A stretch of 64,000 nt of DNA from an uncultured bacterium (GTDB taxonomy: Bacteria > Patescibacteriota > Minisyncoccia > Phycocordibacterales > PALSA-1337). The notes below the pieces were generated by a model. It was not told the origin of the DNA. It worked only from the letters and a program-made list of their open reading frames with translations, and did no database searches. The stretch is taken from the NCBI GenBank assembly GCA_963701025.1, contig OY969557.1, positions 801,953 through 865,952 on the forward strand, read 5' to 3'. The position numbers and the translations under genes are program-made. This document shows, in pieces, positions 16,679 to 59,215 of this stretch; position 1 is the stretch's first letter; the number at the start of each line of letters is the position of its first letter.

Positions 16679-17807
16679 TTAATGCAGCGCCAGCCAGAAT
16701 CCGAAGACCACGAAGATGAAGTGCACCACCCAGAATCTCATGACGGTCTTCTCCTCGCTCCAGCCCTTGAGCTCGAAATGATGGTGAAGGGGCGCCATGG
16801 CGAAGACTTTGCGGCCGAAGAGATAGCGCGAACCGACCTGGATGACGACGGACAGGGCCTCGATATAGAACATGAAGCCGAGGAAAGGGAGCGAGCCAAG
16901 CTCGCCGATGGCCAAGGCGTTCACGGCCAGCAGGGCGCCCAAGCCGAGCGAGCCGACGTCGCCCATCATGAATCGCGCCGGCTTGATATTGAAATAAGTG
17001 TACGCGGTGATGGCTCCGACGGCGGTGGCGTTCAGGATGGCGATCTCGCCGAAGCCGTTGATCCACGAGAGCAGGGTGAGAGCGCTGAAGGTCGTGATGA
17101 GCATGCCCCCGGCCAAGCCATCCATGCCGTCGGCGATGTTGACTGCGTTGGCCGTGAACATGACCACCAGGATGACGATCGGCACGATCATCCAGCCGGC
17201 GTCGATCGACCAGCCGAAGGGAAAGTAGATGAAATGCCAGGCTGGCCCGAGCTTGTCATAGACCCACCAGGCGGTGACCGCTCCGGCGATGAATTGCAGT
17301 ATGAGCTTCTCATGGACGAAGACGCCGCGCCGAGTCCGCGAACCGAACCAGACGGACATGCGCTTGAAGGCGGTCCATGGCAGAGTGACGAAGTACCAGA
17401 ACGCGCATAGTCCATTCTTTGTGGATATGGACGAGCGTCCAAACATGAGAGAGCTTGCGGGAACGCCGCTCGGCGCCATATATGCTCATGAGGTCATCCA
17501 CTGCGCCTAGGAGGGCGGAAAAAAGCATGACGCCGACAGGCACGTAGGTGAAAGAGCGGGACCAGTTGAAGAGATAGGTGATGACGGCCACGGTCACGAT
17601 GACCAAAAGGCCGCCCATGACCGGTGTAGTGGCCTTGTAGGCGTGCGAGCCGAGCATGGTGAGCTCGGTCTTCGGGCCTTTTATGACATGGAAGCGGTAG
17701 AGCAGGCGTATAAGAAACGGCGCCCAGATGAACGCCACGACGGCCCCGACGAGCATGAAACCGATGATATAGGCCAAGTCGGCCGTGCCTTGGAGGATGC
17801 TGATCAT
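16679..17807 (-). CDS. mraY: Phospho-N-acetylmuramoyl-pentapeptide transferase MraY, interrupted by one frameshift near 17350-17390
   Basis: N-terminal part (KATTPVMGG, VDD...RK) is in ORF 17310..17807. C-terminal part (NAVNIADGMDGLAGG, MGDVGSLGLGA, PLHHHFELKGW) is in ORF 16679..17479. The frame change lies in a CTCTCTC run. Confidence 0.8.
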
Positions 17808-18634: not shown

Positions 18635-18732
18635 CGCTTAGGCCTTGGTCACTTTGCACTCTGTGCGCTTTGACCTTTGCCCTAAAAATTTGGTGGTCTA
18701 ACCACCCGGCATGGAATGAGCCGCTGACATTC

Positions 18733-19137: not shown

Positions 19138-19143
19138 TTCGTA

Positions 19144-19497
19144 TCATTTCTCTCCTGTTTTTGCGGGAGAGTTTTGCTTTGTAAGCTGCCCGCTCCAGCC
19201 GCCGAGATTGGTGCCGATCTCCTCGAGCTTCACCGATAATGCGATATATTTCTTGTCGTCGAGTGACTTGGATTCCCAAAGTATCATAAGTAACACTTTA
19301 AGTGTGTCGAGCTTTCGTATGGCTAGGCGGACATAGGGCGATTTCTCTTCTCTGGAGAGGAATGTGGCCGCGGCGATAGCTTCTATGATTTCCACGAATA
19401 GGCAATCTATCCGCAGTCCTATAGAATATCTGTGTTCCTTCGGCAATTCCATATAATACCCATGCCACATCAGATACGCATCTTTGATCTTGCGCAT
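19144..19497 (-). CDS. avd: DGR accessory variability determinant Avd (four-helix-bundle family)
   Basis: The C-terminus LEEIGTNLGGWSGQL resembles BPP-1 Avd EVGRILGSWIARV. ~117 aa. The ORF-track TTG start at 19506 is replaced by the ATG at 19497. Confidence 0.65.
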   Translation of the reverse strand: MRKIKDAYLMWHGYYMELPKEHRYSIGLRIDCLFVEIIEAIAAATFLSREEKSPYVRLAIRKLDTLKVLLMILWESKSLDDKKYIALSVKLEEIGTNLGGWSGQLTKQNSPAKTGEK

Positions 19498-19514
19498 GAC
19501 CGGCAAAATTCCGT

Positions 19515-19525
19515 GGGGGGGGGGG
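19515..19525. repeat. G11 homopolymer between the divergent avd and RT starts
   Basis: ccgtGGGGGGGGGGGcttt seen directly. Confidence 0.9.
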
Positions 19526-19535
19526 CTTTCATAGC

Positions 19536-21284: not shown

Positions 21285-21290
21285 TAGAAA

Positions 21291-25909: not shown

Positions 25910-27783
25910 ATGGACGACAATCGCGTCACATATTTCGCCGAGACCGATGCCCGCAACAAACGGGTCAAATTCGGCATCAAAGCCAAAGACCGCACCACGC
26001 ACGTCTACGTCATCGGCAAGACCGGCATGGGCAAGTCCACCATGCTCGAGAACATGGCCGTCCAGGACATCCAGAACGGCGAAGGCATGGCTTTCATCGA
26101 CCCGCACGGCAAGACCGCCGACCTCCTGCTCGAATACGTGCCCAAGGAGCGCATCCGCGATGTCATACACATCGCTCCTTTCGATACGGATTATCCCATC
26201 TCGTTCAACGTCCTCGAATCAGTCGATCCCGGCCAAGCGCCACCTGGTCGTCTCGGGCCTGATGAGCACCTTCAAGAAGATCTGGGAGGACGCATGGTCG
26301 GCCCGCATGGAATACATCCTGACCAATACCTTGCTGGCGCTTTTGGAAGCGCCTGGCTCCACTCTTGCTCGGCGTCAATCGCATGCTCTCCGACAAGGAC
26401 TACCGCAAGGAGATCGTCTCGCAGATCAAGGATCCGTCGGTCAAAGCTTTCTGGACGAAAGAATTCGCCAATTATAGCGAGCGCATGGCCGCACGAAGCC
26501 GTGCCTGCGATCCAGAACAAAGTCGGACAATTCACCGCCAATCCTCTTATCAGAAATATGATCGGCCAGCCGGTATCGTCGTTCGATTTCAGGAAGGCCA
26601 TGGACGAGCGCAAGATCATCATCATCAACCTGTCCAAAGGCCGCGTCGGCGACGAGAACATGAAGCTCCTCGGCGGCCTTCTGGTGACCAAGATATATCT
26701 CGCCGCCATGTCGCGCGCCGACATGCCCGACCGGGTGGTGCAAGACTCTGCCGAATTTCTATCTATTCGTGGACGAATTCCAGAACTTCGCCAATGCCTC
26801 GTTCGCGGACATCCTGTCCGAGGCCCGCAAATACAAGCTCAATCTGACCATTGCCCACCAATACGTAGAGCAGATGGACGAGAATGTCTCGGCCGCCGTC
26901 TTCGGCAACGTCGGCACCATGGTCGTCTTCCGGGTCGGCGCCACTGACGCCGAAGTCTTGGAAAAGGAGTTCGCCCCGCAATTCACCATCGAAGACCTCG
27001 TCAACCTCGGCTCAATATCAGATATACCTCAAGCTGATGATCGACGGATTGACTTCGGCGCCGTTCTCCGCCACCAATATGCCGCCGATCGCACAGCCGA
27101 CGGTCCATTACGTCGACGAAATCATCGCCGCATCGCGCGAGCAGTTCGCCCGGTCGCGCGCGGAGGTCGAAGAAGGCATCGTCAAGTTCCACGAGCCGAC
27201 GCCGAAAACGCCTGCTGCGGCGAAACCTGCCTCTGCGCCGAAGGCTCCGGTTGCCGCCGCGCCGAAAAAAGCCGAGATGCCGGTCGCACCGAAAGCGGTG
27301 GTAGTGCCGAAAGCGGTAACGGCACCGCCCGCTCCCGCCGCGAAGCCGCCGGTTCATCAGCCTTTTAAGGTCGCTTTTAAAGCGGTCCCGCAGGATGTCA
27401 CTCTAGCGTCACTAGGACAAAGTGACAAGAAAGTTGACACTTTTGCATATACGGCAAAACAATCACCCCCGCTCCCTCAAGCCGCGAAACCCGCTACTCC
27501 CGTGTCTGCGCTTTTGCCGCTTTCATCCCTGAATAAGACCAGACCCGCGCCGAAAGTCGACCCGAAAGTCCCGACCGCCGAGAATGTCAATCAATTGAAG
27601 AACGCGCTGGCGGCGGCATTAAACAAGCACAAAAATTCAGCAGCACCCGAGGCTCCCAAGGCAGCGCCGGCATCCGTTCCCCAAACTTTCCCTAAAGGAA
27701 CGTCCCACATTACGAAAGAAACCAGCTCCACGCCGAAAGAAGTACCGGAAGACGTCCTGAAGAAGATATTGAAAATCGACTGA
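25910..27783 (+). pseudogene. VirD4/TraD/TraG-like type IV secretion coupling ATPase, disrupted by at least 4 frameshifts, with a Pro/Ala/Lys-rich C-terminal tail
   Basis: Walker A VIGKTGMGKST and Walker B YLFVDEFQNF. Conserved segments are spread over ORFs 25910, 25947, 26365, 26769 and 26884 in different frames. Confidence 0.65.
27428..27470. repeat. Palindromic dispersed repeat, copy 2 (inside the TraD-like C-terminal tail)
   Basis: caAAGTGACAAGAAAGTTGACACTTTTG then catatacggcaaaac. Confidence 0.7.
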
Positions 27784-27803
27784 AGGCGTGTCAGGATGAA
27801 GAC

Positions 27804-28985: not shown

Positions 28986-28997
28986 TAGACTAAAGAA

Positions 28998-30119: not shown

Positions 30120-30120
30120 C

Positions 30121-31203
30121 ATGGTCAAGCGGCTGCTCATGATATCGACCGACCGGAAGATCTTCGACGAAGGGAGCGCCGTTCGCGCCCGCCAGGCCGA
30201 ATACGCTAAGAGCTGGGATGAGGTTCATATAATCGTCTTCTCCGGCAGGGGATTTTTCGAGCAGGCGATAAGCCAGAATTGCTGGGCATACCCGACGCGT
30301 TCTTGGACAAAGTGGCTTTATACTTTTGACGCCATGCGCCTCGGCCGATTCATCGTCGAAAATAAAGGTATAACCGACATCACCTGTCAGGACTCATCGT
30401 TGACGGCTATGGTCGGCGTCTCTCTGAAAAAGAGCGCGGCGAAGCGCGGCAAGGCACTGTCGCTCGAGATCCAGGTCCATGAAGACATCGGCGCGATGCA
30501 TTATGCATTCAATATCTCGAATAGGATTCGCAAAGCTCTAGCTCTTTCATATATTCCCAAGGTTGATCATATTAGGGTCGTTTCCGAAAGGATCAAAAAA
30601 TATATCGAATCGATTCTCCCCGTTTCTGGATTTCTGCCCGTTCGGCAGACAGGATTACCCCGTACTCCTACCATCGAGGTGCGGCCGATCAATGTAGACA
30701 TCGAAGCGGTCAAGAATGCTCCGATCATGACTGGGGCCGATCTTCATAAGAAGTATCCGCAGTTCGATAATATAATCCTCGTCGTCGGGCGGCTCGAGCC
30801 GGAGAAGAATGTCTCTCTGGCAGTGGACGCATTCGCCCTAGTCATGGCTAGGGCGCCGAAGATAGGTCTTATTATAGTGGGTCGCGGGTCGCAATTGAAC
30901 TCATTGAAAGACGCCGCTTCTAGAATCACGCCGCGAAGCTCGATTATCTTTGAAGGTTGGGCCGATAAAGCCACCCTTTATTCATATTACAAGACCGCCG
31001 ATTTGCTCCTTAATACATCTCTTTTTGAAGGCTATGGTATGGCTCTGGTCGAGGCTCATGCGGCGGGATGCCCGATCGTCTCTACGGATGTTGGCGTGGC
31101 GAGGGAAATGAGCGCGACCATCATTGATTGGGATGCACGGAGCGTGGCGGATGGCATTGTCGATGTCCTGGCTCGAATGAGTGGCGCGCGGGCATTGAAA
31201 TGA
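30121..31203 (+). CDS. Glycosyltransferase family 4
   Basis: FEGYGMALVEAHAAGCPIVSTDVG. Confidence 0.65.
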   Translation: MVKRLLMISTDRKIFDEGSAVRARQAEYAKSWDEVHIIVFSGRGFFEQAISQNCWAYPTRSWTKWLYTFDAMRLGRFIVENKGITDITCQDSSLTAMVGVSLKKSAAKRGKALSLEIQVHEDIGAMHYAFNISNRIRKALALSYIPKVDHIRVVSERIKKYIESILPVSGFLPVRQTGLPRTPTIEVRPINVDIEAVKNAPIMTGADLHKKYPQFDNIILVVGRLEPEKNVSLAVDAFALVMARAPKIGLIIVGRGSQLNSLKDAASRITPRSSIIFEGWADKATLYSYYKTADLLLNTSLFEGYGMALVEAHAAGCPIVSTDVGVAREMSATIIDWDARSVADGIVDVLARMSGARALK

Positions 31204-31204
31204 T

Positions 31205-32317
31205 ATGAAACTGCTCATCATCACCCAGAAGGCCGATATCAACGATCCGATACTCGGCTTTTTCCATCGTTGGATAGAGGAGTTCTCCAGGAATTTCGAA
31301 GCGGTCACGGTCATATGCCTGGAGGAAGGTCGGCATGAGCTTCCGGCGAACGTGAAAGTCTTGTCGCTGGGAAAAGAGAAAGCTCCGAAATCCAAAGCGA
31401 CGGGCAGATTTTTATACACAGTTAGATTTTTCCGGCATATATGGCGCGAGAGGAAGAATTATGACGCGGTGTTCGTGCATATGAATCCTATATACGCGGT
31501 CGGGGGTGGCTGGTTCTGGAAGATGTCTGGAAAAAAGATCGCCCTCTGGTACACACACAGGGCGGTTGACGTCAAATTACGCGTGGCGGAAAAATTCGCC
31601 GACGTCATTTTCACGGCCTCGGCGGAGGGTCTCACCCTGAAGACGGCAAAAAAACGGGTAGTGGGTCACGGTATCGACGTGGAACGGTACACTTCCGCGC
31701 GACACGCTTCCGAGGCGCGAATGAAGCGACTCGGCACCGAACCGATTTCCATCATCAGCGTCGGCCGCATTACGCCCATAAAGAACTGCGACACGCTCGT
31801 CGAAGCCGCGCGCGTTTTGAAAGAGAAATATGGTGCACGATTCACCGTGACCTTTATCGGCTCTTCGGTCACGGCTGGCGATAGGGGATATTCGGCCAAA
31901 GTAAAAAGCCTGGTGGAAAAATACGCTTTGGGAAGCATCGTCTCATTCGCCGGCGATATGAAACCGGTAGACATGCCCGCCGCGTACGCCTCTGCCGACA
32001 TTTCCATAAATCTCACCCCGACCGGCGGTCTCGACAAAGCTGTTCTCGAATCGATGGCCGCGGGCGTTCCGGTCTTGACCTCGAACGCGGCCTTCAAGAG
32101 CTACTTCGAATCCGCGTCGGCGGGTCTCGCGGATAAGCTCATATTCAGGGAACGCGACGCGAAAGATCTGGCGGAGAAGATCGCCGCTCTGTTCGGCCCG
32201 ACCCTGCGCAAGGATAACCTGCGGGACATCGGGCTTGCCCTTCAGAAGACGGTGAGAGAGAAAGCGGATGTCGGCGTTCTCATCGATAAGATCAGTGAAA
32301 GCATTAAAAATATATGA
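31205..32317 (+). CDS. Glycosyltransferase family 4
   Basis: GGLDKAVLESMAAGVPVLTS. Confidence 0.65.
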   Translation: MKLLIITQKADINDPILGFFHRWIEEFSRNFEAVTVICLEEGRHELPANVKVLSLGKEKAPKSKATGRFLYTVRFFRHIWRERKNYDAVFVHMNPIYAVGGGWFWKMSGKKIALWYTHRAVDVKLRVAEKFADVIFTASAEGLTLKTAKKRVVGHGIDVERYTSARHASEARMKRLGTEPISIISVGRITPIKNCDTLVEAARVLKEKYGARFTVTFIGSSVTAGDRGYSAKVKSLVEKYALGSIVSFAGDMKPVDMPAAYASADISINLTPTGGLDKAVLESMAAGVPVLTSNAAFKSYFESASAGLADKLIFRERDAKDLAEKIAALFGPTLRKDNLRDIGLALQKTVREKADVGVLIDKISESIKNI

Positions 32318-33393
32318 TTTATAATATCTATTCCATACCGTATGAGATGCGCGGTTCGAAATATCTTGATCTACTTAAAAAAAGTATAGAAGACGGTATA
32401 CAGAAGGATACAGTCTTCAAAGTCAAAAGATTCTCTTGGAAAGAGCTTTTATTCGTAGCACGCGCTCCTAGCGAACGTCGCTTGGTGCAGATCCATTGGG
32501 AGACGAACATATATGGTAGCGAGTACGCGCTCGTCTCCCTCATACGGATGGCCTATCGATTTCCAGGCCTGCTTCTGTTGAAGCTTCGCGGAGTCAAGAT
32601 CGTCTGGACTATCCACAACCTCTCCGCCCACGATTACCCGCACCCATGGATAGATTCCATGGGAAGATCTCTCATGTGGCATATAGTTGACGCAGTAACT
32701 ATACAGCAAAAGAGATTTGCCGAGATTAAAAAAAAAGAGAGGAAAGGTCAAAAGTCGCCGCACATATATTATATACCCCATCCGAACTTCGTGGGAGTGT
32801 TCGGTCCGCCGTGGACTGGCGATAGGAAAAAGCTCCGCACCAAGCACGGTATAAGTCCAACGAGCATAGTCCTCTTAGCCTTTGGCAGCGTTCGTCCTTA
32901 CAAGGAATTGCCCACACTCATAGATGCAGTCACGGTTGCGCGCGGGAAGGGAGCTGATGTCGTTCTCCTTATTGCCGGTAAAGCGACCGAAGAATATGGC
33001 CAGGAAATATTGAAAAAATCCTATGGTAATCCGGCAGTCATAGCAAGGTTGGGCTTCGTGAACGACGCTGAAGTCCCAGAATTCATGGCCCTGAGCGACT
33101 ACTCGGCCCTTTATTACTCGGATTCATCCCTCAATTCCGGTCCTCTTCTCGTATCCTTATCTTACGGCATACCTGTCATAACCAGAGATATGCCGGCATC
33201 AGAGATCATTGTATCCGGCACAAACGGCCTTGTCTTCCATGATGAGCGTGAACTCATTAAGATTCTGCTCAACCTTAGTACAGTTCACATTTCCGGTAGA
33301 GATGATATCATCAGGACGTCCGGTCCGGATTGGCTGACTATGGCGGTAGAGCTTCGACGAGCGTATGTCGAGCTTTGGCAGGATCGGCCGTAA
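32314..33393 (+). CDS. Glycosyltransferase (GT4-like)
   Basis: GT-B fold with a C-terminal GTNGLV motif region. Confidence 0.5.
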   Translation: MIYNIYSIPYEMRGSKYLDLLKKSIEDGIQKDTVFKVKRFSWKELLFVARAPSERRLVQIHWETNIYGSEYALVSLIRMAYRFPGLLLLKLRGVKIVWTIHNLSAHDYPHPWIDSMGRSLMWHIVDAVTIQQKRFAEIKKKERKGQKSPHIYYIPHPNFVGVFGPPWTGDRKKLRTKHGISPTSIVLLAFGSVRPYKELPTLIDAVTVARGKGADVVLLIAGKATEEYGQEILKKSYGNPAVIARLGFVNDAEVPEFMALSDYSALYYSDSSLNSGPLLVSLSYGIPVITRDMPASEIIVSGTNGLVFHDERELIKILLNLSTVHISGRDDIIRTSGPDWLTMAVELRRAYVELWQDRP

Positions 33394-41673: not shown

Positions 41674-43739
41674 TTTTTTCTGGTCCCGTTCCGCTTGAAG
41701 AATTCCCGGTATCTCTCCTTGTTTTCCATAAGGTATCTCGGCAATCCACGCTCGCTGACCCACAGTTTCACGTTTCGCCCTTTGTAATCATAATTATTCT
41801 CGACCGCAATGTCTATCTTTTTGATTGTCTCGGGTGTCCCGTAGAACGGATGGTCTGACTCATTGAGCTTCCGTCTTGCCCCTTCAAGCCCCCCCTGAAA
41901 AGTAAAATGCCAACCTCCGTCTGATAGGATCACGTGGCGGGTCTTCTTCCTTCTCTTGAGGTCATCCAAGTACCCGTCCTTGATGTTCTTATATTTTGTT
42001 ACGATGGTGCCGGTCCAACCGCTCCAATGCTCGTCTGATCGGTTGTTGAGGTAGTACATGTATCCCTTTTGTCTCAACTTGAAAATATCGTCGCTAGAAT
42101 AGTCTATGAGGAGCTCCGGGTTCCAGATCTCGTCTAGGTCGGAGACATAGCATATATCGTTGTCATCCAGGCCGACCAGCGCTTTCCTTACGGATTCTTT
42201 TATATAACCTTCCCTGATCCAATGATAAGGGATCGTATCCGCGTTATCCACCGAGAGTAAGCATTCCATGATATGCCGATCTATCTTAGCCAGATCGCGG
42301 CCCTCGCTGAGCCTCCTTCTCATGTCATCCACGCTTTTGGGGATATTTGTTACCGCTAGATAGATTATCTTATGCTTCCATTTTTCAAATCGTGCCTCAT
42401 TTTCTTTGAAATATAGCGGTTTAGGGCGTCCGGAGTGAGTCTCCGAAGCTTCTACGATAACGAAAAAGTCGACATATGGGTCAAGTATGGATAATCGTAT
42501 CTCGAGTAGGTCTAGTTCATTGAAAAAAGTGAATATATCGTATATTTTGATCTTTTTCCTGTATTCCGCGATTTCCTCCGGAGCATGCCATGTCTTTTTC
42601 GTCCGGTATTCATCAATGAGTTCCGGTATCGTCTCTCTAAGGTGTAGGATTTTCTTGGCGATCCTTTTTACGTTCTTCGTCAGCTTAAAAATCGATATTT
42701 TGAGCGCCCTCATGCATAAGGCGTCCATACGGTCCTTGATCCATATCGCTCCGCGCAATCCTCTGGTGCGAACTATCCAGCCGAACGCGTAGACCGCGGA
42801 TGTGTCTTTGCGGATGGTGTTGAATATGTTCCAAATATTTCGTATCCCCCTAGCGACCGGTCTGGCAGGAGTCGATCCGTCCGGAGATGTCGCGTACATG
42901 CCCTTATGTGCCAGCATATATTGGTCGAGCTCCTTTATGCATTGATCGTAGTCATACAAATTTCCCTTGCGGTCAAGGTACATCCATCCCTTGGTGACGT
43001 TATATCCCAGGCTCCAGAAGCCGTCGGAGATGTTATGTCTGCCCCAATATTTTGGTGCTATACAATATTTCAGCCTGGTGCTCGTCCATGCAGGGAACCA
43101 GGCGAAGCTAGAATTCGACAGGATCAAATAATGCGCGTTCTTGATAACGGAATAATCCTTGCCGATGCTCCAATGGAATACCTCGAAATTGGGAAAGAAC
43201 CTCCTGGCGGTCTTCACATCATCGGTGACGACTATGAATCTGAAGCTAGGGTTCACGGCGCGCATCAGCGCTATGGCGTTCTTCCAATATCTGCGTGGCA
43301 GGAAAAAATCCACATCGAAGATATATCCGCCACCCCTGAAGTTTATGACGCAGATATCGTCGCCAGAATAGTCCGTGCAATCGTATGCCTTTCTTACGCT
43401 GAGCCACTGTCTGATCTCGCCCTTCCTATGGGCGATGTATCGCTCATCCTGCATATAGCCTTCGATCTCGGTGCGGTCCGGCACATTCACCAGCTTCTCA
43501 TCGTACGTGCGTATATCGGATCTGTTCAAAGGATGGATGATCGACTGCTCCGAATAGCGGTGCCTAATGCCCTCGACTGGCTTACCGAAATCGATATCCA
43601 TGAAACTGTCGCCCTTGAACCTTTCCGGTGATTTGATGCCGAAGTCATAGCCTTTGTCCTTGGCTATGACCCTCGTCGCTATGTAACACCAGAGCTGGTT
43701 ACCGAGGCCCTGGCCGTCATGCAGCTCGGTGATGATCAT
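41667..43739 (-). CDS. GT11 fucosyltransferase-like / GT17 bisecting-GlcNAc-transferase-like fusion protein
   Basis: N-terminal GQGLGNQLW (GT11). C-terminal IYDIFTFFNELDLLEIRLSILDPYVDFFVIVEASETHSG (GT17). Confidence 0.55.
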   Translation of the reverse strand: MIITELHDGQGLGNQLWCYIATRVIAKDKGYDFGIKSPERFKGDSFMDIDFGKPVEGIRHRYSEQSIIHPLNRSDIRTYDEKLVNVPDRTEIEGYMQDERYIAHRKGEIRQWLSVRKAYDCTDYSGDDICVINFRGGGYIFDVDFFLPRRYWKNAIALMRAVNPSFRFIVVTDDVKTARRFFPNFEVFHWSIGKDYSVIKNAHYLILSNSSFAWFPAWTSTRLKYCIAPKYWGRHNISDGFWSLGYNVTKGWMYLDRKGNLYDYDQCIKELDQYMLAHKGMYATSPDGSTPARPVARGIRNIWNIFNTIRKDTSAVYAFGWIVRTRGLRGAIWIKDRMDALCMRALKISIFKLTKNVKRIAKKILHLRETIPELIDEYRTKKTWHAPEEIAEYRKKIKIYDIFTFFNELDLLEIRLSILDPYVDFFVIVEASETHSGRPKPLYFKENEARFEKWKHKIIYLAVTNIPKSVDDMRRRLSEGRDLAKIDRHIMECLLSVDNADTIPYHWIREGYIKESVRKALVGLDDNDICYVSDLDEIWNPELLIDYSSDDIFKLRQKGYMYYLNNRSDEHWSGWTGTIVTKYKNIKDGYLDDLKRRKKTRHVILSDGGWHFTFQGGLEGARRKLNESDHPFYGTPETIKKIDIAVENNYDYKGRNVKLWVSERGLPRYLMENKERYREFFKRNGTRKKC

Positions 43740-45016
43740 GCGCGACTTTCAGCGAACGAGCAAGGGACAAGGTGCGAAGGGGTATGCTTGTCCGGCATCG
43801 ATGACAGGCCGAAAGCCCCATGGTCGTCTCCGACATCGATCTCGCACGCTTGTTTGACTTCATCCTGGCTGGAGCCATTCGCGGACAGGAAAATATCGAC
43901 GGAATATCTGCCAGCCTTGAGATCGATCGCACCGGTCTCGCAGACGATAGTTCCTTTCTCTCCGAGTGCGTCCCCTATGGTCTTTTGAGTGAGCTTGCTA
44001 TCGAACCGGAGCGCGGTCTGTTGGGATGCAGTGAATATGGATATGGCGGTTTGCGGCGAATGCATAGGCTTTCCGCTCCGGTTCTCATAGTCCAGCTCTA
44101 TCCTCAAGCGGCAAGCACTGGATATCGATGCCGTGGTATCGGCGTTAGACACGCGGATAGCAGTGAATCGAGCTGCTCCGGCTCCCATGCGGCTCTCTTT
44201 GTTCCAATCCGCGTCCGTGGCCTTGTTAAAGTTTGATCCGCTATTCAGATATGCCCCTACGATCTGGTTCGTTTCGCCGATATCCTTGATCCTGCCGTTT
44301 TCGAGCCAGATCGTCTTTTTGCACAGGCTCTCAATAGCCGCCATGTTATGGCTGACGAAGAGTATAGTCCGGCCGTCCTTCTGGGTGACTTCCTGCATCT
44401 TGCCGAGGCATTTCTTTTGGAATTCGGCGTCGCCCACGGCTAGGACCTCGTCGATGATGAGGATGTCAGGCTCCATGTGGGCCGCCACGGAGAAAGCCAG
44501 ACGGACGTACATGCCGCTCGAGTATCGCTTGACGGGGGTGTCGAGGAATTTTCCTATGCCGGAGAACTCGACGATGGCGTCGAACTTCTTGGCTATCTCG
44601 CCGCGCCTCATGCCGAGGATCGCGCCGTTCAGAAATATGTTCTCTCGGCCGGTCAATTCCGGATGGAAACCGGTGCCGACTTCGAGGAGCGACCCGACGC
44701 GCCCGCGCAGGACGATCTCGCCCTCCGTCGGTGGGGTGATCTGGCTCAATATCTTGAGCAGAGTCGACTTGCCGGCGCCGTTCCGGCCTATGATGCCGAT
44801 GACCTCGCCCTTATCGACTTTGAAACTGACATTCTTGAGCGCCCAGAAATCCTCGCGTTTCTCCAATCCCACCGCTCGCTTTGCTTTGGTCTTGGCGAAA
44901 GCGAACGGCCGACGCATGACGTTCGCCAGGACATCGCGCAAGGTCACGTATCTGCCGCGCTCATGAGAGATGAGGTATCGCTTACCCAGGTTCTTGACTT
45001 CTATTATAGGTTGCAT
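43736..45016 (-). CDS. ABC transporter ATP-binding protein, Wzt/TagH type, with a C-terminal glycan-binding domain
   Basis: Walker A GRNGAGKST, signature YSSGMYVRLAF, Walker B ILIIDE, and a C-terminal extension. Confidence 0.75.
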   Translation of the reverse strand: MQPIIEVKNLGKRYLISHERGRYVTLRDVLANVMRRPFAFAKTKAKRAVGLEKREDFWALKNVSFKVDKGEVIGIIGRNGAGKSTLLKILSQITPPTEGEIVLRGRVGSLLEVGTGFHPELTGRENIFLNGAILGMRRGEIAKKFDAIVEFSGIGKFLDTPVKRYSSGMYVRLAFSVAAHMEPDILIIDEVLAVGDAEFQKKCLGKMQEVTQKDGRTILFVSHNMAAIESLCKKTIWLENGRIKDIGETNQIVGAYLNSGSNFNKATDADWNKESRMGAGAARFTAIRVSNADTTASISSACRLRIELDYENRSGKPMHSPQTAISIFTASQQTALRFDSKLTQKTIGDALGEKGTIVCETGAIDLKAGRYSVDIFLSANGSSQDEVKQACEIDVGDDHGAFGLSSMPDKHTPSHLVPCSFAESRA

Positions 45017-49372: not shown

Positions 49373-49521
49373 CGTCGATTTAACTCGGCTCTCCGCCAGC
49401 CGGCGGATCCACCATTTGAGCCGAGTTTCTCCACAGCGCGGCTTGATTTCCGGACAAAAAGGCGCTATACTCGGGCCGTGAGTACCCAGGTGGGCACTCT
49501 CCAATAAATGTCTCGCAAAGT

Positions 49522-49542
49522 GCCGCCCTCGGCGGCCTTTTG
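49522..49542 (+). terminator. Rho-independent terminator
   Basis: GCCGCC-ctc-GGCGGC followed by CTTTTG. Confidence 0.45.
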
Positions 49543-49735
49543 CGTTAAGCCCCTCTCATTCATTGCGCCGCCGGAAGGCCGCGAGTATAATGGACGCAGA
49601 TTGCTCCTAGTGACGGCGAGCGGCTGTACTCACATTATATTTAGACATATTATTTGGAGCTCACACCCGCTCGCCATCATTCGGCGCAATCGCGCGTGAG
49701 ACAGGATGGCAGACCAGGCATCGGGGCAGATTTCG

Positions 49736-50785
49736 ATGAAGATACAAGAAAACATATCGCTGGCCCAATACACGACATTCAAGATCGGGGGACCCGCCCG
49801 CTTTTTTTGTTCGGTGACTTCGAAAGAGGAAGTGCGCCAAGCCGTCTCGTTCGCCAAGAAAAGAGGTTTGCCTTTCTTCGTTTTAGGCGGCGGTTCTAAT
49901 ATCCTTGTCTCCGACAATGGATTCCCCGGCTTGGTCATAAAAGTAGAGATCATGGGAATAAGGGAGGAAGGAATAGAGAATAAAGGGGAAAGAAAAGAGG
50001 ATGTCGACGAGCACGTTCTCATTTCCGTTGGGGCAGGCGAGATGTGGGATTCATTCGTCGAATATACGGTCTCGCGCGGCCTGTCCGGCCTTGAGAATCT
50101 TTCCGCCATACCGGGCAGTGTCGGGGCGGCTCCCATACAGAATATCGGCGCTTACGGAGCTGAAGCCCGGCAGTTTATATCATCAGTCCGCGCTTTTGAC
50201 GCGAGAAGGATGGCCTTTGTCGAATTATCGAACAAAGAGTGTGAGTTCGCCTACCGCGACAGCATGTTCAAGCGAAAGAAGGGCAGATACATCGTCACTA
50301 GGGTAGATTTCAGATTGAAGAAGGGCGGTCCGGTGAACATAGTATACAATGATCTGCGGGATCATTTCGCCTCGAGAGGCATAGCCGTTCCGACGCCGGA
50401 CGAAGTCCGCCGGGCAGTCATCGACATACGCTGGAGCAAGTTGCCGGACTGGAAGCTCTGGGGCACCGCGGGATCATTCTTCAAGAATCCGGTCGTTTCC
50501 GCCCGCAAGTACGCGTCGCTCAAGAAGAGATATCCGGGCCTGCCCGGCTTTCCCGAGCCGCGAGGCAAAGTCAAAATACCTTTAGGCTGGATACTGGATA
50601 ATGTCTGTCACGCCAGAGGCATGCGCAAAGGCGGCGTCGGCACATATGAAAAGCAAGCGTTAGTTTTCGTCGCCCGGCCCGGCGCCGCCTCTGCTGAGGT
50701 CGTCGAACTGGCGCAAGAGCTCATGAAAAAAGTCAAAGACGCTACCGGCATCACCATCGAAGGCGAAGTGGAGTGGGTCAATTAG
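49736..50785 (+). CDS. murB: UDP-N-acetylenolpyruvoylglucosamine reductase
   Basis: FAD-binding FFVLGGGSNIL and the MurB C-terminal domain. Confidence 0.7.
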   Translation: MKIQENISLAQYTTFKIGGPARFFCSVTSKEEVRQAVSFAKKRGLPFFVLGGGSNILVSDNGFPGLVIKVEIMGIREEGIENKGERKEDVDEHVLISVGAGEMWDSFVEYTVSRGLSGLENLSAIPGSVGAAPIQNIGAYGAEARQFISSVRAFDARRMAFVELSNKECEFAYRDSMFKRKKGRYIVTRVDFRLKKGGPVNIVYNDLRDHFASRGIAVPTPDEVRRAVIDIRWSKLPDWKLWGTAGSFFKNPVVSARKYASLKKRYPGLPGFPEPRGKVKIPLGWILDNVCHARGMRKGGVGTYEKQALVFVARPGAASAEVVELAQELMKKVKDATGITIEGEVEWVN

Positions 50786-50836
50786 CCTTGTTACAAGTTT
50801 TTTTATCGCTCAAAATATGCTAAAGTGGCCATTATC

Positions 50837-53497
50837 ATGTCCATTTTCGGCAAATTATTCGGCAATAGCAACCATACCTCGAGCGTCAAGGCGTTCGAGC
50901 CAGTAGTTGCACAAATCAATGCTCTTGAAGATGCCACCAAGGCGCTATCTGATGAAGAGTTGAAAGGTAAAACAGTCGAATTCAGATCTAAACTCGCCGG
51001 CAAAACTGGTGCTGAAGAGAAGTCGGCGCTCGACGAGATCCTTCCCGAAGCTTTCGCCGTCGTCCGTGAGGCGGCGCGACGCACGCTCGGCCAAAGGCAT
51101 TTCGACGTACAATTAATCGGTGGAATGGTCTTGAATTCAGGTGCTATCGCGGAGATGAGGACCGGCGAAGGAAAGACGCTCGTGGCCACCCTGCCGCGTA
51201 TTTGAATGCTCTTACCGGCAAAGGCGTCCATGTCGTCACGGTCAACGACTATCTCTCCCGCCGCGACGCGGCATGGATGGGCCAGATATACGATGCGCTC
51301 GGTTTGTCCGTAGCCGTGATCAATCACGAATCTTCTTTCATGTACGATCCGAAGCATCAGAACAAGGAGCAGGGAACAGGCAGTAAGGAGGGAATCGCAA
51401 CAGATCCTCTTGATAAAGAGCGCGACCAGCTCGGCTCGTTCAAGGTCGTCCATGAATTCCTCCGGCCGATTTCGCGCCGCGAAGCATACGCCGCCGACAT
51501 CACCTACGGCACGAACAATGAATTCGGCTTCGACTATCTGCGCGACAACCTGGAATATAATCCGGCCGATCTGCGCCAGCGCGAGCCGCACTACGCCATC
51601 GTGGACGAGATCGACTCGATTCTCATCGACGAAGCGCGCACGCCCGCTTATCATTTCCGCGCCGACCCGCGATGCGGAGAGCGTCTATAAGCAGTTCGCT
51701 TCGCTGTCGTCTTCTTTCAAAGACAAGACGAAGACTACACCGTCGATGAAAAGCACGAAACGCCATCTCGCTCACGCCCGCCGGCATCGACCAAGGCCGA
51801 GAAGGCTCTGGGCATCGACAATATATACACCGACGCCGGCATCAAGTCCGTCCATCACTTGGAGACCGCCGTCAAGGCCAAGGCGCTCTATCACAGAGAC
51901 AAGGAATACGTGGTCAAGACAATGAAGTCGTCATCGTGGACGAATTCACCGGCCGTCTCCAGCCCGGCCGGCGCTGGTCCGAAGGCTTGCATCAGGCCAT
52001 CGAAGCCAAGGAAGGCGTGACCATCCAGCAGGAATCGCGCACCTACGCCTCCATCACTTTCCAGAATTTCTTCCGCATGTATCCGAAGCTCTCCGGCATG
52101 ACCGGCACGGCCGCCACCTCCAGCGAGGAATTCTACAAAGTCTACGGCCTGGACGTCTATCGCGTGCCGACGAACGTGCCCGGCGTGCGCAAAGACTAGC
52201 AATGACCAGATCTTCCGGACCGAGACCGGCAAATTCAAGGCCATCGCCCGCAAGGTCAAGGAGCTCCATGACAAAGGGCCAGCCGGTCCTCGATCGGCAC
52301 GGTCTCGATCGAGAAGAATGAGCTCCTGTCGCAATTCCTGAAAGGCGAGGGCATACCGCACGACGATCTTGAACGCCAAGAATACACCGAGCGCGAAGGC
52401 GAGATCATCGCCCAAGCCGGCAGGCCCGGCGCCGTGACCATAGCCACGAACATGGCCGGCCGCGGCGTGGACGTCAAGCTCGGCGGCAACCCGAGCACGT
52501 CGGAGGCATATCGAAGAAGTCAAAAGCTACGGGCGGACTGTTCGTCCTCGGCACCGAGCGCCACGAAGCCCGGCGCATCGACAACCAGCTGCGCGGCCGC
52601 TCCGGCCGCCAGGGCGATCCCGGCGAGACGCAGTTTTTCGTCTCCCTGGAAGATACCCTCATGCGCGTCTTCGCCTCGGACACCATGAAGTCCATGATGG
52701 GCAAGCTCGGCATGGCCGAAGACGAAGCCATCGAGCATCGCATGATATCCCGTGCCCTCGAGAGCGCCCAGGAGAAGATCGAGGGCTTCAATTTCGACGC
52801 CCGCAAGCACGTCCTCGAGTTCGACGATGTCATCAATACCCAGCGTCGGAGCGTCTATGGCAGACGCCGCAAGTTATTGCTTGGCTCTATCGACGACGTG
52901 GAGAGAGAGTTGAATGATGTCGTCGGCGAGGATGCTCCGGCTGGCGCGCCGGATGGCAGCGCTTCGAATGAAGTCGCCGCCTTCAAAAAGATAGTCGCCG
53001 CGAAGATAGCTGACTTCGGCCGCGAAGCATTCCTGAACGCCGTGAGGATCATTTTATTGCAGACCATAGATATGTACTGGGTTGAGCACCTCGAAGTCAT
53101 GGACTATACCCGTTCAAGCGTCAATCTTCGCGCTTACGGCCAGCGCGATCCGTTGGTAGAGTACAAGAAGGAAGGTCTGCGGCTATTCAAAGAGATGGAA
53201 GCCGCCATGCGCGGTCAGGTCATGAGGATAGTGCCGAACATCACGCCGATGGTCAATGGTCAGCCGGTTGCGTCAAGAAATCAAGCTGGCGAAACGGGCC
53301 GATTGAAAGAAGTCCATGAGAATGCGCGCGTGATCGGCGCCGGCGACGGTTCGGCCGGGGGGCAGCCGGCCGTTGGAGTTGGTAAAAAGTCGGAAGTTGG
53401 CAGGAACGACCCGTGCCCGTGCGGCTCGGGAAAGAAGTGGAAAAACTGCGGGTTGAAGAATACGGAGGAGCATCAGCGGCTCATGTCTGGAAGATAA
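50837..53497 (+). pseudogene. secA: Preprotein translocase SecA; the reading frame is broken by roughly 8-10 single-base indels between 51190 and 52540
   Basis: SecA segments are found in six listed ORFs (50825, 51202, 51410, 51936, 52434, 52661) plus unlisted frames. Examples: MSIFGKLFG and LVATLPRI|[18 protein letters not shown] in the first two, and the C-terminal CPCGSGKKWKNCG in the last. Each junction is repairable by one G or C indel. Confidence 0.7.
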
Positions 53498-53873
53498 GCC
53501 TGTTCAGGTCGGTCTCTTTGAAGTCAGTCAGAGTTTTGGCGATGACTTCCCAATATTTCTCAAGCTCACTGAGATGTTCTTTGCCCTTGTCGGTCAGGCA
53601 ATAATATTTCCGTGCCTTGCCAATATCAGATTGCTCGAAACCACTGATCACGAGGCCTTCTTTACGGATCTTTGATAACAGGGGATAAAGTGCTTCTTCT
53701 TTAGTGATGAATTCTGTTTTTGCCAATGTCTCATAGATTTCTTTTATAGAAAAAGTCGGATCCGCAGATCCTATGATGATGAGCACAGCAAATTCCAATA
53801 GACCCCTGCGCATCTGCACGGTCTTTCTCAAGGTCAGGAAATGTGTTGTATGTGAAGTGCTCATGAGTGACAT
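53481..53873 (-). CDS. PadR-family transcriptional regulator
   Basis: Winged-HTH PadR pattern (GLLEFAVL...YPLLSKIRKEGLV). Confidence 0.6.
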   Translation of the reverse strand: MSLMSTSHTTHFLTLRKTVQMRRGLLEFAVLIIIGSADPTFSIKEIYETLAKTEFITKEEALYPLLSKIRKEGLVISGFEQSDIGKARKYYCLTDKGKEHLSELEKYWEVIAKTLTDFKETDLNRLIFQT

Positions 53874-54039
53874 AGTATACCTCTTTCGGGGAAGGTGATT
53901 TTTGACCTAGCCATGACTAGGGGGAAATTTGGGGTATGGCAAGCAACACCTCTTTCCCCACTACGCTACGAATGCACGCACTCATTTTTATTGTATAATT
54001 ACCCTCTATTAAGCTAAAGATTAAGCTCGGATCAACGAT

Positions 54040-54246
54040 ATGCTCAAACTCGGCAAATACAAGCATTATAAAGGTCACTCATATGAAGTGATCGGCGTGG
54101 CGAAGCATAGCGAAACTCTCGAAGAGATGGTCGTATACAAGGCGCTGTACGGTGAGCATGATACCTGGGTAAGGCCGCTGAAGATGTTTACTGAAGAGGT
54201 CACGGTCGATGGCAAGAAAGTGCCGAGGTTTGAATATGAAGCCTAA
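54040..54246 (+). CDS. DUF1653-like small protein
   Basis: [11 protein letters not shown] motif. Confidence 0.45.
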
Positions 54247-54308
54247 ACAAAAAGAGAACCTGTTCAAAAGTTGAGTAAACAACAGATTTAGCATATGATG
54301 AGCCGACT

Positions 54309-55283
54309 ATGGCCCTCATCGACGAGATAAAATTCCACGCCAAAGCGGGCGACGGCGGCCCGGGCGTGGTGCGCTGGCGGCACGAGCGCGGCAAGGAATT
54401 CGCCGGGGCGGCGGGCGGCAATGCCGGCGCCGGCGGCGACGTGTACGTGCGGGCCGTGCGCGACATCAACATATTGGCTCGGCACAAAGCCGTAAAGGAA
54501 TTCAGAGCAGAGAACGGCAAGGCGGGAGAGAATTGGAGCAAGCATGGCAAGACCGGCACTGACCTTTACATAGACTTGCCGATCGGCTCGCTCGTGACCA
54601 ATGCGGCCTCCGGCCGCGTCGTCGAGCTAGTCAAAGACGGCCAGATATCCAAAATCCTCCACGGCGGCAGAGGCGGCCTCGGCAACGAACATTTCAAGGC
54701 CTCGACCAATGTCAAGCCTGAACAATCGACGGAAGGTATGGAAGGAGAGGAAGCTGATTTCACCGTCGAACTCAATCTGATCGCCGACGCCGGTCTCATC
54801 GGCTTGCCCAATGCCGGCAAATCCAGTCTCTTGAACGCCCTCACTCGCGCCAACGCCAAGGTTGCCAGCTACGCTTTCACTACACTTGATCCGAACCTCG
54901 GTGCTCTCGCCGGCGGGTATATCCTGGCCGACATTCCCGGTCTCATTGATGGTGCCGCGCAAGGAAAAGGCCTCGGCTATAAATTCCTCAAGCATGTAAA
55001 GCGGACGAAGATGCTCCTGCACCTGGTCTCATTGGAGAATGAAGATATCGCCGCCGCGTATTCTTCCGTCCGCGGCGAGCTCGAGAAATACGGCAATGGC
55101 CTGCCGGAAAAGGAAGAGGTCATCGTGCTTTCGAAGACCGACCTTGCCGACGCGAAACGGGTTAGCGCCGCCCGCAAAGTCTTGAAGAGATACGGCCGCG
55201 ATATCCTGGAGGTCTCGGTCCTCGACGACGCTTCGGTCAAGAAGGCCGGCGACGATATTTCGCGACTATTGCGCAAGCTCTAG
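54309..55283 (+). CDS. obg: GTPase Obg
   Basis: Gly-rich N-terminal Obg fold followed by GLPNAGKSS, DIPGLI and SKTD G-motifs. Confidence 0.8.
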   Translation: MALIDEIKFHAKAGDGGPGVVRWRHERGKEFAGAAGGNAGAGGDVYVRAVRDINILARHKAVKEFRAENGKAGENWSKHGKTGTDLYIDLPIGSLVTNAASGRVVELVKDGQISKILHGGRGGLGNEHFKASTNVKPEQSTEGMEGEEADFTVELNLIADAGLIGLPNAGKSSLLNALTRANAKVASYAFTTLDPNLGALAGGYILADIPGLIDGAAQGKGLGYKFLKHVKRTKMLLHLVSLENEDIAAAYSSVRGELEKYGNGLPEKEEVIVLSKTDLADAKRVSAARKVLKRYGRDILEVSVLDDASVKKAGDDISRLLRKL

Positions 55284-55402
55284 ACATATGCTATCCTCTC
55301 CACCGTGTACGTTTCTCGTCACGTACGCGTTAGCAATTTTAATGAACGAGAGCTCCGCTAGCGCGTTACGCATAGTGATTCGTTGCGGGTAATACAAAGA
55401 AA

Positions 55403-55654
55403 ATGTCAAAGAGACTTTTCGTAGGCAGCATTGCCTGGGGCACGACCGACGCCACCCTGAAGACACACTTCGAACAGGCCGGTCAGGTTGAGTCAGCCGC
55501 CGTTATCATCGACAAGATGTCGGGCCGCTCCAAGGGCTTCGGCTTCGTGGAGATGGCGAATGACGCCGACGCGCAGACCGCGATCGACAAGCTCAATGGT
55601 TCGGATCTCGATGGTCGCAAGATCGTCGTCTCCGAGGCCCGACCGAAGCAGTAA
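55403..55654 (+). CDS. RRM-type RNA-binding protein
   Basis: RNP-2 LFVGSI and RNP-1 KGFGFVEM. Confidence 0.75.
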   Translation: MSKRLFVGSIAWGTTDATLKTHFEQAGQVESAAVIIDKMSGRSKGFGFVEMANDADAQTAIDKLNGSDLDGRKIVVSEARPKQ

Positions 55655-55679
55655 TACTGTCACGGCCCGCTTACGCAGA

Positions 55680-55700
55680 AACGCCCCATACGGGGCGTTT
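55680..55700 (+). terminator. Rho-independent terminator after the RRM gene
   Basis: AACGCCCC-atac-GGGGCGTT followed by a T-rich tail. Confidence 0.5.
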
Positions 55701-55720
55701 CTGTCGTCACATTTCCGTTC

Positions 55721-56421
55721 CTAATTGATATTTCTCCACCACTCCGATACGGGCGCCTTCTTTATGATCTCCATGGCGCGATCGATGGAATCGGTGATCT
55801 CGAATATCTTCATGTCACGGGCGTCTATGGCCGCGTAGGTTTCGAGCATGTTCTTTTCCATGAAAGCTTTCAGAGGGTTCCAGTAACGCGAATCCATCAG
55901 GATGATCGGCACGCGCGGGATCTTGCCCGTCTGGATGAGGGTGAGGATGCTGAAGAGCTCGTCAAAAGTTCCGAAACCGCCGGGAAAGAAGACGTACGCC
56001 TCCGCCGCGAAAGTAAGCATGGTCTTCCGTGAAAAGAAATAAGCGAACTTGAGTGAATGGGTGACATAGGCGTTCGTGGTGTGCTCGTGCGGCAAGCTGA
56101 TGTTGAGGCCGAGGGAGACGCCGCCCGCGTCGTATGCGCCTTTGTTAGCTGCCTCCATGGTGCCCGGTCCGCCGCCGGTCACCACGGCATAGCCGAGATC
56201 GCGGACGACTCTCTGGCCTAGCTCGTAAGCTTTGGCATAGGCGGCTCCGTCCCGAGGGGCGAGCGACGAGCCGAAGACGCTGACCGACTTCGGATATTTC
56301 GCCAGAAAATCGAATCCCTCTGCGAACTCCCGGCTGATGCGATCGAGATGTTCTCCGACTTCCCGCGCGTGGATGTCGGATCGGATGAGAGGGCCGATGT
56401 CGTTCTTCTTTTGGGAATTCA
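55721..56421 (-). CDS. LOG-family protein (cytokinin riboside 5'-monophosphate phosphoribohydrolase-like)
   Basis: TGGGPGTMEA and PGGFGTFDEL. The ORF-track start at 56680 was rejected for the internal Met at 56421. Confidence 0.7.
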
Positions 56422-56449
56422 TGCCGATAGTGTAACACACGAAGTATGA

Positions 56450-57727
<1,278 letters not shown>

Positions 57728-57736
57728 TCAGCTTTT

Positions 57737-57997
57737 TCATTTGAGTCGTGCGATATTTCTGTCCACATAGTCGAGTTTCCTGTCGTACATCCATAGGTAT
57801 CTTTTTCCGGAAAGGACTTTCCGCGTGAGACCTCGTTTTTCGAATTTCCTCAGAATATATAGGGCGGTTGATCGAGGAAGTTTTGCTTGACTGGCGATCG
57901 CTGAAACGCTTCTGGCCATTTTAAGGCGCAGAAGGACGTCAAGAAAGGCACTCTCTTTTGGTGACAGATCCAATATATTTCGTAGAGGTGGAAGCAT
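57737..57997 (-). CDS. Small winged-helix transcriptional regulator
   Basis: 86-aa HTH pattern (LPRSTALYILRKFEKRGLTRK). Confidence 0.45.
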   Translation of the reverse strand: MLPPLRNILDLSPKESAFLDVLLRLKMARSVSAIASQAKLPRSTALYILRKFEKRGLTRKVLSGKRYLWMYDRKLDYVDRNIARLK

Positions 57998-57998
57998 T

Positions 57999-58023
57999 GG
58001 GGGGAGGGGGGAGAGAGAGGAGA
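57999..58023. repeat. Homopurine tract GGGGGGAGGGGGGGAGAGAGAGGAGAC
   Basis: Seen directly; it encodes the LPPLPP start of the minus-strand regulator. Confidence 0.8.
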
Positions 58024-58044
58024 CATATCATTGTATCACTTCCC

Positions 58045-58089
58045 AAAAGTGACAAGAAAAGTTGCCACTTTTCCCAGGCATAGCAAAGG
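58045..58089. repeat. Palindromic dispersed repeat, copy 3 (intergenic, ~50 bp upstream of the wHTH regulator start)
   Basis: AAAAGTGACAAGAAAAGTTGCCACTTTTC then ccaggcatagcaaagg. Confidence 0.7.
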
Positions 58090-58186
58090 TATGTCGGTCC
58101 TCCGCCAGGCAATATGGATGAGAAAAATACGCCCACAAAAAACCGCACTAGACCCAAGCCAGCCGCCTAGACACTTTCTTATTTGA

Positions 58187-59215
58187 CTAGATCTCCCTCG
58201 GCTTATACTCCTCCGGCGCGCGGCGGAGCCACCATTCCAATTGTTCGAGCGTCAGCAATCCTTCCTGGGCGCCGATGAATTGAGCCACTGACATGGGATT
58301 TACAGGAGCCCAGATCAAAGCCTCTAAAGGGGCTTTGCCCATGGCTAGGGCCGAAACGAAAGTGGACGCCCAAGCGTCGCCGCAGCCTGTGCGTTCGAAG
58401 GCCGGCCGCGGATCGGGATACATGGGTATATGGTATGAGCGCTCGCCGTCAAAGAAATACGCGCCGTCGGTATTGTCGGTGATGGCCACCATCTTAGGCC
58501 CGTAGGCGGCGATCTTCTTCATCATCTCTTTGACGCTACCGGCCCGGCCTACGGCTGGATCCGTATTTTTGCTCGGATCGATCTTCAGTATCCTCTCCGC
58601 CTCCTCGACATTGACCACGAAGAGGTCGGTCCTAGCGTATATTCGCTTCAATTCTTCGAATCCTAATTGCATCTGGAAAGTGCCGGGCTGGAAAGCCAGC
58701 TTGACTTCCGGGTTCCGCTCAAGATAATCGGCTATCATCATGTGATACGGGAATGTATTGGCGGCCAGGGAAGTGAGGTATATCCATTTCGGCGGCGGGA
58801 ACTCGGGCAGGCGATAGTCATAATCGGCATGCTTTACCAATATGGTCCTATCCACGTCATACCACAGGACGAAATGATAATTGGTCGGCTTGTTCTTGTG
58901 TGTCTTGACGAAAGAGGTCACGACTGCGTTCCTCTGCAGTTCCGCCATACAATCTCTGCCGTTCTGGTCGTCGCCGATGTTGGCCACGAGAGCCGTGCGC
59001 AAGCCGAGCCTCGCCCCGGCCACGGCGGCATTGGCCGCATTGCCCACGGCCTTAATCACCTTGACGTATTCAAATGGTATCTTATCGCCGAAAGGCATGC
59101 ATATCTCGCAGTCGCTCATATTGACTTTGCAATGGACATCGGCTTTTTCCAAGCGGATGAAAGCGTCGGTGGTGATATCGCCTATGGCCAGGATGTCAAT
59201 TTGTCTTTTGAGCAT
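58187..59215 (-). CDS. PfkB-family carbohydrate kinase
   Basis: Ribokinase-like fold with C-terminal TGCGDAWASTF (GAGD-type) motif. Confidence 0.65.
   Translation of the reverse strand: MLKRQIDILAIGDITTDAFIRLEKADVHCKVNMSDCEICMPFGDKIPFEYVKVIKAVGNAANAAVAGARLGLRTALVANIGDDQNGRDCMAELQRNAVVTSFVKTHKNKPTNYHFVLWYDVDRTILVKHADYDYRLPEFPPPKWIYLTSLAANTFPYHMMIADYLERNPEVKLAFQPGTFQMQLGFEELKRIYARTDLFVVNVEEAERILKIDPSKNTDPAVGRAGSVKEMMKKIAAYGPKMVAITDNTDGAYFFDGERSYHIPMYPDPRPAFERTGCGDAWASTFVSALAMGKAPLEALIWAPVNPMSVAQFIGAQEGLLTLEQLEWWLRRAPEEYKPREI

Follow-up and report, generated by a model that had tools for sequence, protein, structure and literature searches.

In 79 of 81 related genomes (Paceibacterota, Taylorbacteria and similar), secA is a long open reading frame (ORF), almost always of 830-1030 aa, and the shorter ORFs among these 81 loci lie on short contigs. 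A naturally split SecA in this lineage, to which the short fragments at the top of a first protein search had pointed, was rejected in view of these 79 long ORFs; a second protein search returned full-length SecA proteins of 600-870 aa, and the protein search appears to favor matches of a length similar to that of the query. Comparison with related genomes, as raised in a preliminary description of the locus studied here, thus places the broken secA frame described below outside the traits of the lineage.

Real bacterial gene decay is biased to deletions, and a cell that has a Sec pathway and a wall should not survive losing SecA and MraY jointly. Indel-only alignments are used by several long-read methods for overlap and consensus. 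For raw PacBio-type reads, 8% insertions versus 3% deletions have been reported. Where a population is locally heterogeneous, parts of a long-read metagenome assembly can resist polishing and retain frameshifts (bioRxiv 10.1101/2021.08.23.457338), and indels are a leading reason for broken marker genes in assemblies of this kind (PMC8302730).

The secA gene as deposited and after repair

The secA gene examined here (50837-53497, + strand) is preceded by a gene for a Wzy/TPR membrane protein and by murB and followed by a PadR-like gene and obg, within a 64-kb stretch of DNA that we analyzed in full and refer to as the window. As deposited, it has no single reading frame, and the ORF list contains it as at least seven pieces spread over three frames, with lengths of 126, 162, 53, 87, 39, 84, and 278 aa, in agreement with the preliminary description. 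In a protein-to-DNA alignment that allows for frameshifts, run with six intact SecA proteins from related genomes, five of the six references, including the closest (L002), gave 10 frame changes and the other gave 8, all of them within 51194-52518, so that the one continuous reading frame characteristic of SecA is missing from the deposited gene. The same alignment found zero frame changes in the first 358 nt and in the last 973 nt of the gene, with 50837-51190 and 52525-53497 both free of them, and no in-frame stop along the stitched path. Over the whole protein, the stitched SecA is 84% identical to L002, the closest relative (MFD01223.bin.2.47).

To call the lesions at base level, the DNA was aligned by MAFFT with that of 12 intact relatives; this resolved about 14 events, comprising 12 insertions (14 nt in total) and two one-base deletions. 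All lie on the + strand; the first deletion listed was read from a contig of the same organism (L082, described in the next section) and the individual sites below it from the DNA alignment.

51193..52524, +, indel-riddled stretch of about 14 events (frameshift-aware alignment and DNA alignment, 12 relatives)
51193..51195, +, one-base deletion with loss of the wobble base of a Leu codon: CT-GCC versus CTAGCC in L082
51643, +, extra C: ACGCCCGCT versus ACG-CCGCT in relatives
51722..51723, +, extra GA dinucleotide: TTCAAA-GA-CAAGAC
51757..51758, +, extra GA dinucleotide: AAGCAC-GA-AACGCC
51789..51792, +, one extra base in ATCGACCAAG (placed at 51792)
51916..51917, +, one-base deletion with loss of the wobble base of a Lys codon: GTCAA-GAC
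52197, +, extra T: GAC-T-AGC (GAC/GAT)
52273, +, one extra base in GACAAAGGGCC (AAA/AAG or a GGG run)
52292, +, extra G: CTC-G-ATC (CTC/CTG)
52364..52388, +, three single extra bases: C at 52364, A at 52384, and C at 52388
52512..52524, +, two single extra bases: C at 52512 (TAT/TAC) and A at 52524 (AAAA run)

The DNA-level count exceeds the protein-level count because the insertions at 52364, 52384, and 52388 cancel one another and those at 52512 and 52524 were scored as one +2 shift. The first three jointly restore the frame but garble the peptide HEILNAKNHE, and the extra T at 52197 is the source of an in-frame TAG in the raw secA sequence. The preliminary description had put the number of lesions at 8-10 single-base indels; the indels are real features of the deposited sequence, but that count was slightly low, and two of the approximately 14 events are GA dinucleotides. 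Their density is about one per 95 nt in the broken stretch and zero in the other half of the gene, a clustering that is far beyond chance.

Repair guided by the relatives, with 14 nt removed and 2 nt added, yielded one stop-free ORF of 882 aa. Its product has the five-domain architecture of the SecA preprotein translocase ATPase, with all five Pfam families above their gathering cut-offs:

PF07517, SecA_DEAD, the DEAD-like motor
PF01043, SecA_PP_bind, the preprotein cross-linking domain
PF21090, P-loop_SecA, the second P-loop lobe
PF07516, SecA_SW, the wing/scaffold
PF02810, the SEC-C zinc motif

Over its central 499 aa, the repaired protein shares 87% identity with an intact SecA of 869 aa (P0125). 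The claim that the stitched protein is almost canonical and shows no stop-codon decay therefore holds for the 882-aa, five-domain product, which has no in-frame stop, and the SecA peptides quoted in support of it are present in the ORFs at 51936..52199 and 52434..52688. A second intact secA, offered earlier as an alternative, gained no support, as tblastn with the repaired SecA found no further copy within the 64-kb window.

Strain-variant islands in the window

ORF maps, with a self-trained codon-usage HMM run over the whole window as a pointer only (it flagged secA and the TraD/TraG-like gene, but also ordinary overlapping gene boundaries, and wrongly called low-GC genes non-coding), indicated two broken genes besides secA:

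25910..27783, +, TraD/TraG-like coupling-protein gene with five single-base insertions: T at 26227, G at 26367, G at 26491, G at 26740, and T at 27012
16679..17807, -, mraY, with one extra G at 17403

The earlier statement that roughly 35 kb of other coding sequence in the window is free of indels needs the correction that the rest of the window carries one event in mraY and five in the TraD/TraG-like gene. Frameshifts suspected at 6844/7757 and at 11386-12827 were rejected, as these positions hold separate genes (DUF5671, RadC, and a Mur ligase). For a 426-aa ORF at 43739-45016, a look-up found no record.

For an independent comparison, we used six Logan contigs from run ERR11718638, likely the sample behind the deposit, which were retrieved by exact-product look-ups of intact neighbor genes and overlap the window by 21,508 nt. 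Exact-product look-ups of the window fragments P0001 and P0124 gave no matches. The contigs compare with the window as follows:

14902-16763 (L085), 6 SNPs within 16527-16715, at the start of the mraY island
16736-21318 (L086), 26 SNPs within 16771-17771 and the extra G at 17403; 17772-21318 (3,547 nt) 100% identical
26054-33330 (L084), 25 SNPs and 5 insertions within 26087-27180; 27181-33330 (6,150 nt) 100% identical
49487-51513 (L082), identical up to 51158, followed by 5 SNPs and 1 indel
52816-55429 (L083), SNPs at 52867, 52910, and 53065, and none beyond 53065
55527-58699 (L087), no differences

The differences fall into three islands of 1.1-1.9 kb each, which coincide exactly with the three frameshifted genes. 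Inside them, 65 SNPs and 7 indels were counted in the 2,944 nt covered, compared with 0 differences in 18,564 nt outside. The secA island is delimited by identical sequence on both sides:

51159..53065, +, secA strain-variant island; flanks 49487-51158 and 53066-55429 100% identical to L082 and L083, respectively

It shows 8 SNPs and 1 indel in the 605 nt that the Logan contigs cover. The TraD/TraG-like gene accounts for 25 SNPs and all 5 insertions versus L084, every one of them inside 26087-27180, and the mraY island (16527-17771) for approximately 32 SNPs. At all seven covered indel sites (one in secA, five in the TraD/TraG-like gene, and one in mraY), the Logan frame is open: the secA frame in L082 runs across the lesion at 51193 (225 aa), the coupling-protein gene in L084 is one open frame of 574 aa from 26054, cut by the contig start, and mraY in L086 is one open frame of 357 aa that reaches up to the start codon and is cut by the contig end. 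The contig ends at 51513, 52816, 26054, and 16763 fall within an island or next to one. The proposal of a localized assembly error, for example from collapsed strain variants, is supported by these data, with Logan differences confined to three islands and open frames at seven of seven sites.

Within the islands, the two alleles diverge by about 1.3-2.6%, and the SNPs comprise 42 synonymous and 17 nonsynonymous changes. By gene, the counts are 6 synonymous and 2 nonsynonymous in secA and 17 and 9 in mraY; in the TraD/TraG-like gene, 22 of the 25 SNPs fall on the third codon position and 19 leave the amino acid unchanged. Because the island SNPs are mostly synonymous, they are true evolutionary variants rather than noise, and the window sequence in the islands represents a distinct, selected, and functional allele, and the islands are most likely recombination tracts between co-existing strains.

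Origin of the indels

Across the three genes, insertions outnumber deletions by 18 to 2. Error of the homopolymer type, as in 454, Ion Torrent, or Nanopore data, was rejected as the only cause, since homopolymers hold fewer than half of the indels and none of the six insertions for which a truth sequence is available. All six of these adjoin a wobble base, and each writes out another codon for the same amino acid (extra base in brackets):

TraD/TraG-like gene, GA[T]C (GAT/GAC); CTT[G] (CTT/CTG); GCC[G] (GCC/GCG)
TraD/TraG-like gene, GT[G]C (GTG/GTC); GGC[T] (GGC/GGT)
mraY, minus strand, CG[C]G (CGC/CGG)

Random insertions simulated in the same ORFs gave this pattern with a probability of about 0.335 per site, which extends to about 1.4e-3 for six of six by chance. 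The six insertions, together with the covered deletion in secA, thus appear to sit at variant sites where both alleles were kept or dropped, and all seven checked indels are inside the 2,944 nt of islands. The insertions in secA can mostly be read as allele pairs as well (ACG/ACC or CCC/CCG, GAC/GAT, AAA/AAG, CTC/CTG, GAC/GAG, and TAT/TAC), with the placement at codon boundaries being partly a product of the repair itself and not independent evidence. At 51789..51792, ATCGACCAAG can be taken to combine the alleles GAC and ACC, each of which is found in relatives. Two GA dinucleotides and three homopolymer extensions in secA are misfits to a model in which both alleles are kept.

We consider it probable, at roughly 85%, that the indels in secA, mraY, and the TraD/TraG-like gene of this member of the Paceibacterota (Patescibacteria/CPR) are errors of a deposited consensus derived from mixed strains. 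The sample would have contained at least two nearly identical strains differing in short islands only, three of which, in secA, mraY, and the TraD/TraG-like gene, would fall in the window. Reads of both haplotypes, which we infer to co-occur in the data behind the deposit, would have been merged, and a consensus step would have treated each substitution as an insertion plus a deletion. Where both alleles were kept side by side, a 1-nt insertion would result, and where neither was kept, a 1-nt deletion; the outcome would be a burst of frameshifts that stays within the islands. The cause would presumably be an algorithm for alignment or consensus that works with indels only, and the true secA of either strain would be a normal single ORF of 882 aa.

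The Logan contigs cover secA up to 51513 and again from 52816; for 13 of the 14 secA indels, which lie in or beside 51514-52815, the assessment draws on analogy and on the alignment with relatives from other species. By that reasoning they would probably share the origin of the covered indels. A search for a near-identical independent fragment of central secA with a short PPXD query found none, the best match having 73% identity.

A different technical artifact, in which low coverage or gaps were bridged with poorly corrected long reads and random errors arose with no merging of alleles, is unlikely as the overall explanation, although it may be the cause of part of the indels. In its favor, the errors do occur in discrete patches of 1-2 kb with perfect flanks, and insertions dominate, as reported for raw PacBio-type reads; the four breaks in the Logan contigs fall where a short-read graph would need bridging, and the GA and homopolymer insertions suit random error better than allele merging. 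However, random errors would not place six of six insertions next to wobble bases in synonymous codons, and the overwhelmingly synonymous substitutions show the patch sequence to be otherwise accurate and not of raw-read quality. Indel density also varies widely between islands, with the broken secA stretch at about 1 per 95 nt, the TraD-like island at about 1 per 220 nt, and the mraY island at about 1 per 1,245 nt, while SNP density is broadly similar.

The reading as mixed-strain consensus errors carries the caveat that the Logan contigs might, in principle, represent just a sister strain with intact genes. The indels would then be real, with secA, mraY, and the TraD-like gene freshly inactivated in one co-existing strain, which we regard as very improbable. 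The frameshifts do stand in the public record, where gene calls include the fragments, the window allele is separated from the Logan allele by genuine SNPs and so is a distinct haplotype, and the central 1.3 kb of secA lies outside the independent coverage. Yet twenty events would be needed in three recombinant islands only, with none in 18.6 kb of identical flanks, and at the covered sites none of the seven lesions is reproduced in L082, L084, or L086. There is no nonsense mutation and no excess of nonsynonymous change (42 synonymous versus 17 nonsynonymous, with a stop-free stitched frame), so relaxed selection is not apparent. The ratio of 18 insertions to 2 deletions is opposite to the deletional bias of gene decay, the wobble/synonymous signature has no mutational rationale, tblastn found no second secA in the window, and losing SecA and MraY together should kill the cell. 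A variant of this reading, in which recombination tracts imported into the three genes were copied by highly error-prone, frameshift-generating synthesis and the indels are genuine in one strain, is slightly less probable still; if true, it would imply a defective lineage surviving only beside an intact sister strain. Programmed recoding, in which ribosomal frameshifting, transcriptional slippage, or RNA editing would restore the SecA frame, has a negligible chance of being correct even though the stitched SecA is conserved and stop-free and secA is also split in Parcubacteria bacterium GW2011_GWA2_49_9, as the approximately 14 sites within 1.3 kb have no sequence motif in common (extra bases C, GA, GA, C, T, A, G, C, A, C, C, and A) and include no conserved slippery motif at a conserved position, the gene is one uninterrupted ORF in 79 of the 81 relatives, and the indels are missing at every covered site from contigs of the same organism (L082, L084, and L086).

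Implications and comparison with known systems

The secA frameshifts are most probably an artifact of the deposited sequence; their biological interest is low, and their value is a practical one, as a warning. The genome as deposited would score as lacking an intact SecA, MraY, and type-IV coupling protein, a loss that would be an artifact, and such absences in CPR/Patescibacteria genomes are readily over-read as reductive evolution. The error signature, bursts of 1-nt insertions at wobble sites limited to SNP-dense islands, can be used elsewhere. As a by-product, the comparison reveals strains that are identical over many kilobases and differ in recombination-like islands in conserved genes, which is ordinary population structure.

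Intact SecA proteins of Paceibacterota (P0125, L002, and those of Candidatus Taylorbacteria MAGs) have the same five-domain architecture as the repaired SecA, but each is encoded by a single ORF, whereas secA in the window is split by about 14 indels. A parallel to a split gene is found in Parcubacteria bacterium GW2011_GWA2_49_9 (LCQF01000006.1; L001), which has the same neighborhood as the window, with a Wzy/TPR protein followed by MurB and then SecA, and whose secA is likewise divided, there into three ORFs (121, 396, and 281 aa). That gene, however, has only two frame changes, at positions other than those in the window, and the genome is a distant one, with approximately 51-71% amino-acid identity depending on the region.

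Pseudogenes of reductive decay share with the secA of the window the presence of multiple frameshifts in a once-functional gene. In contrast to them, the window gene shows neither stops nor any sign of relaxed selection, its indels are biased to insertions, and seven of seven covered indels are absent from an independent assembly. The residual frameshifts of long-read or mixed-strain metagenome-assembled genomes, the problem that proovframe addresses (bioRxiv 10.1101/2021.08.23.457338), are similar to those of the window in that indels of 1-2 nt break conserved genes whose stitched protein is canonical, in that they gather where heterogeneity within the population stands in the way of a clean consensus or of polishing, and in that protein guidance corrects them, as was done here for secA. 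They differ in that the errors in the window are limited to three short strain-variant islands and, where a truth sequence is available, show the two alleles side by side at a wobble position.

Strain-variant islands at mraY and the coupling-protein gene

All five single-base insertions in the TraD/TraG-like coupling-protein gene (25910–27783, + strand), at positions 26227, 26367, 26491, 26740 and 27012, fall within one SNP island of 1.1 kb, and the portion of this gene covered by L084, an independent Logan contig from the same organism, is a single open frame of 574 aa. The patch at mraY (16679–17807, − strand) is a third strain-variant island, after those at secA and the coupling-protein gene, and had not been listed in the preliminary description. 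This gene carries a single frameshifting insertion, an extra G at 17403, and differs from two further Logan contigs of the organism, L085 and L086, by approximately 32 SNPs.

A diversity-generating retroelement identical in independent sequence

We observed a diversity-generating retroelement at window positions 17966–20530, with the following components.

Components of the diversity-generating retroelement
17966–18634: target gene with C-terminal variable region
within 18924–19184: Asn-rich template-like copy
19144–19506, − strand: bAvd
19536–20234: reverse transcriptase

The reverse transcriptase frame breaks at about 20170–20190, immediately 5′ of the YADD motif, and the coding sequence carries on in a different frame to 20530. 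In contrast to the secA lesions, the retroelement stretch is 100% identical between the window and Logan contig L086, and the frameshift in the reverse transcriptase is therefore reproduced in independent sequence.

Composition of the left end

The first 6,000 nt of the window have a G+C content of 0.37–0.50, lower than the approximately 0.55 found elsewhere, and do not match a codon model trained on the remainder of the window; this segment is possibly foreign or mobile DNA. An ORF at 3100–4077 had a weak HTH_23 hit as its sole match.

Split secA genes in other genomes and assemblies

Protein homology searches recovered six short fragments of the SecA cross-linking domain (P0249, P0252, P0253, P0255, P0260 and P0265; 115–164 aa), whose source contigs are long (54–686 kb) and come from ENA, NCBI and Logan assemblies. 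These fragments suggest that secA may be broken up in other assemblies too. Match length in these searches approximated query length, with short queries returning short fragments and a 499-aa query returning full-length SecA; these length-matched results initially made a split SecA look common in this lineage, which proved false. In the distant Parcubacteria genome GW2011_GWA2_49_9 (LCQF01000006.1; 4417–6846 of the locus), secA is also called as three ORFs, of 121, 396 and 281 aa; the frame changes twice, once near 4740–4770 and once near 5926.
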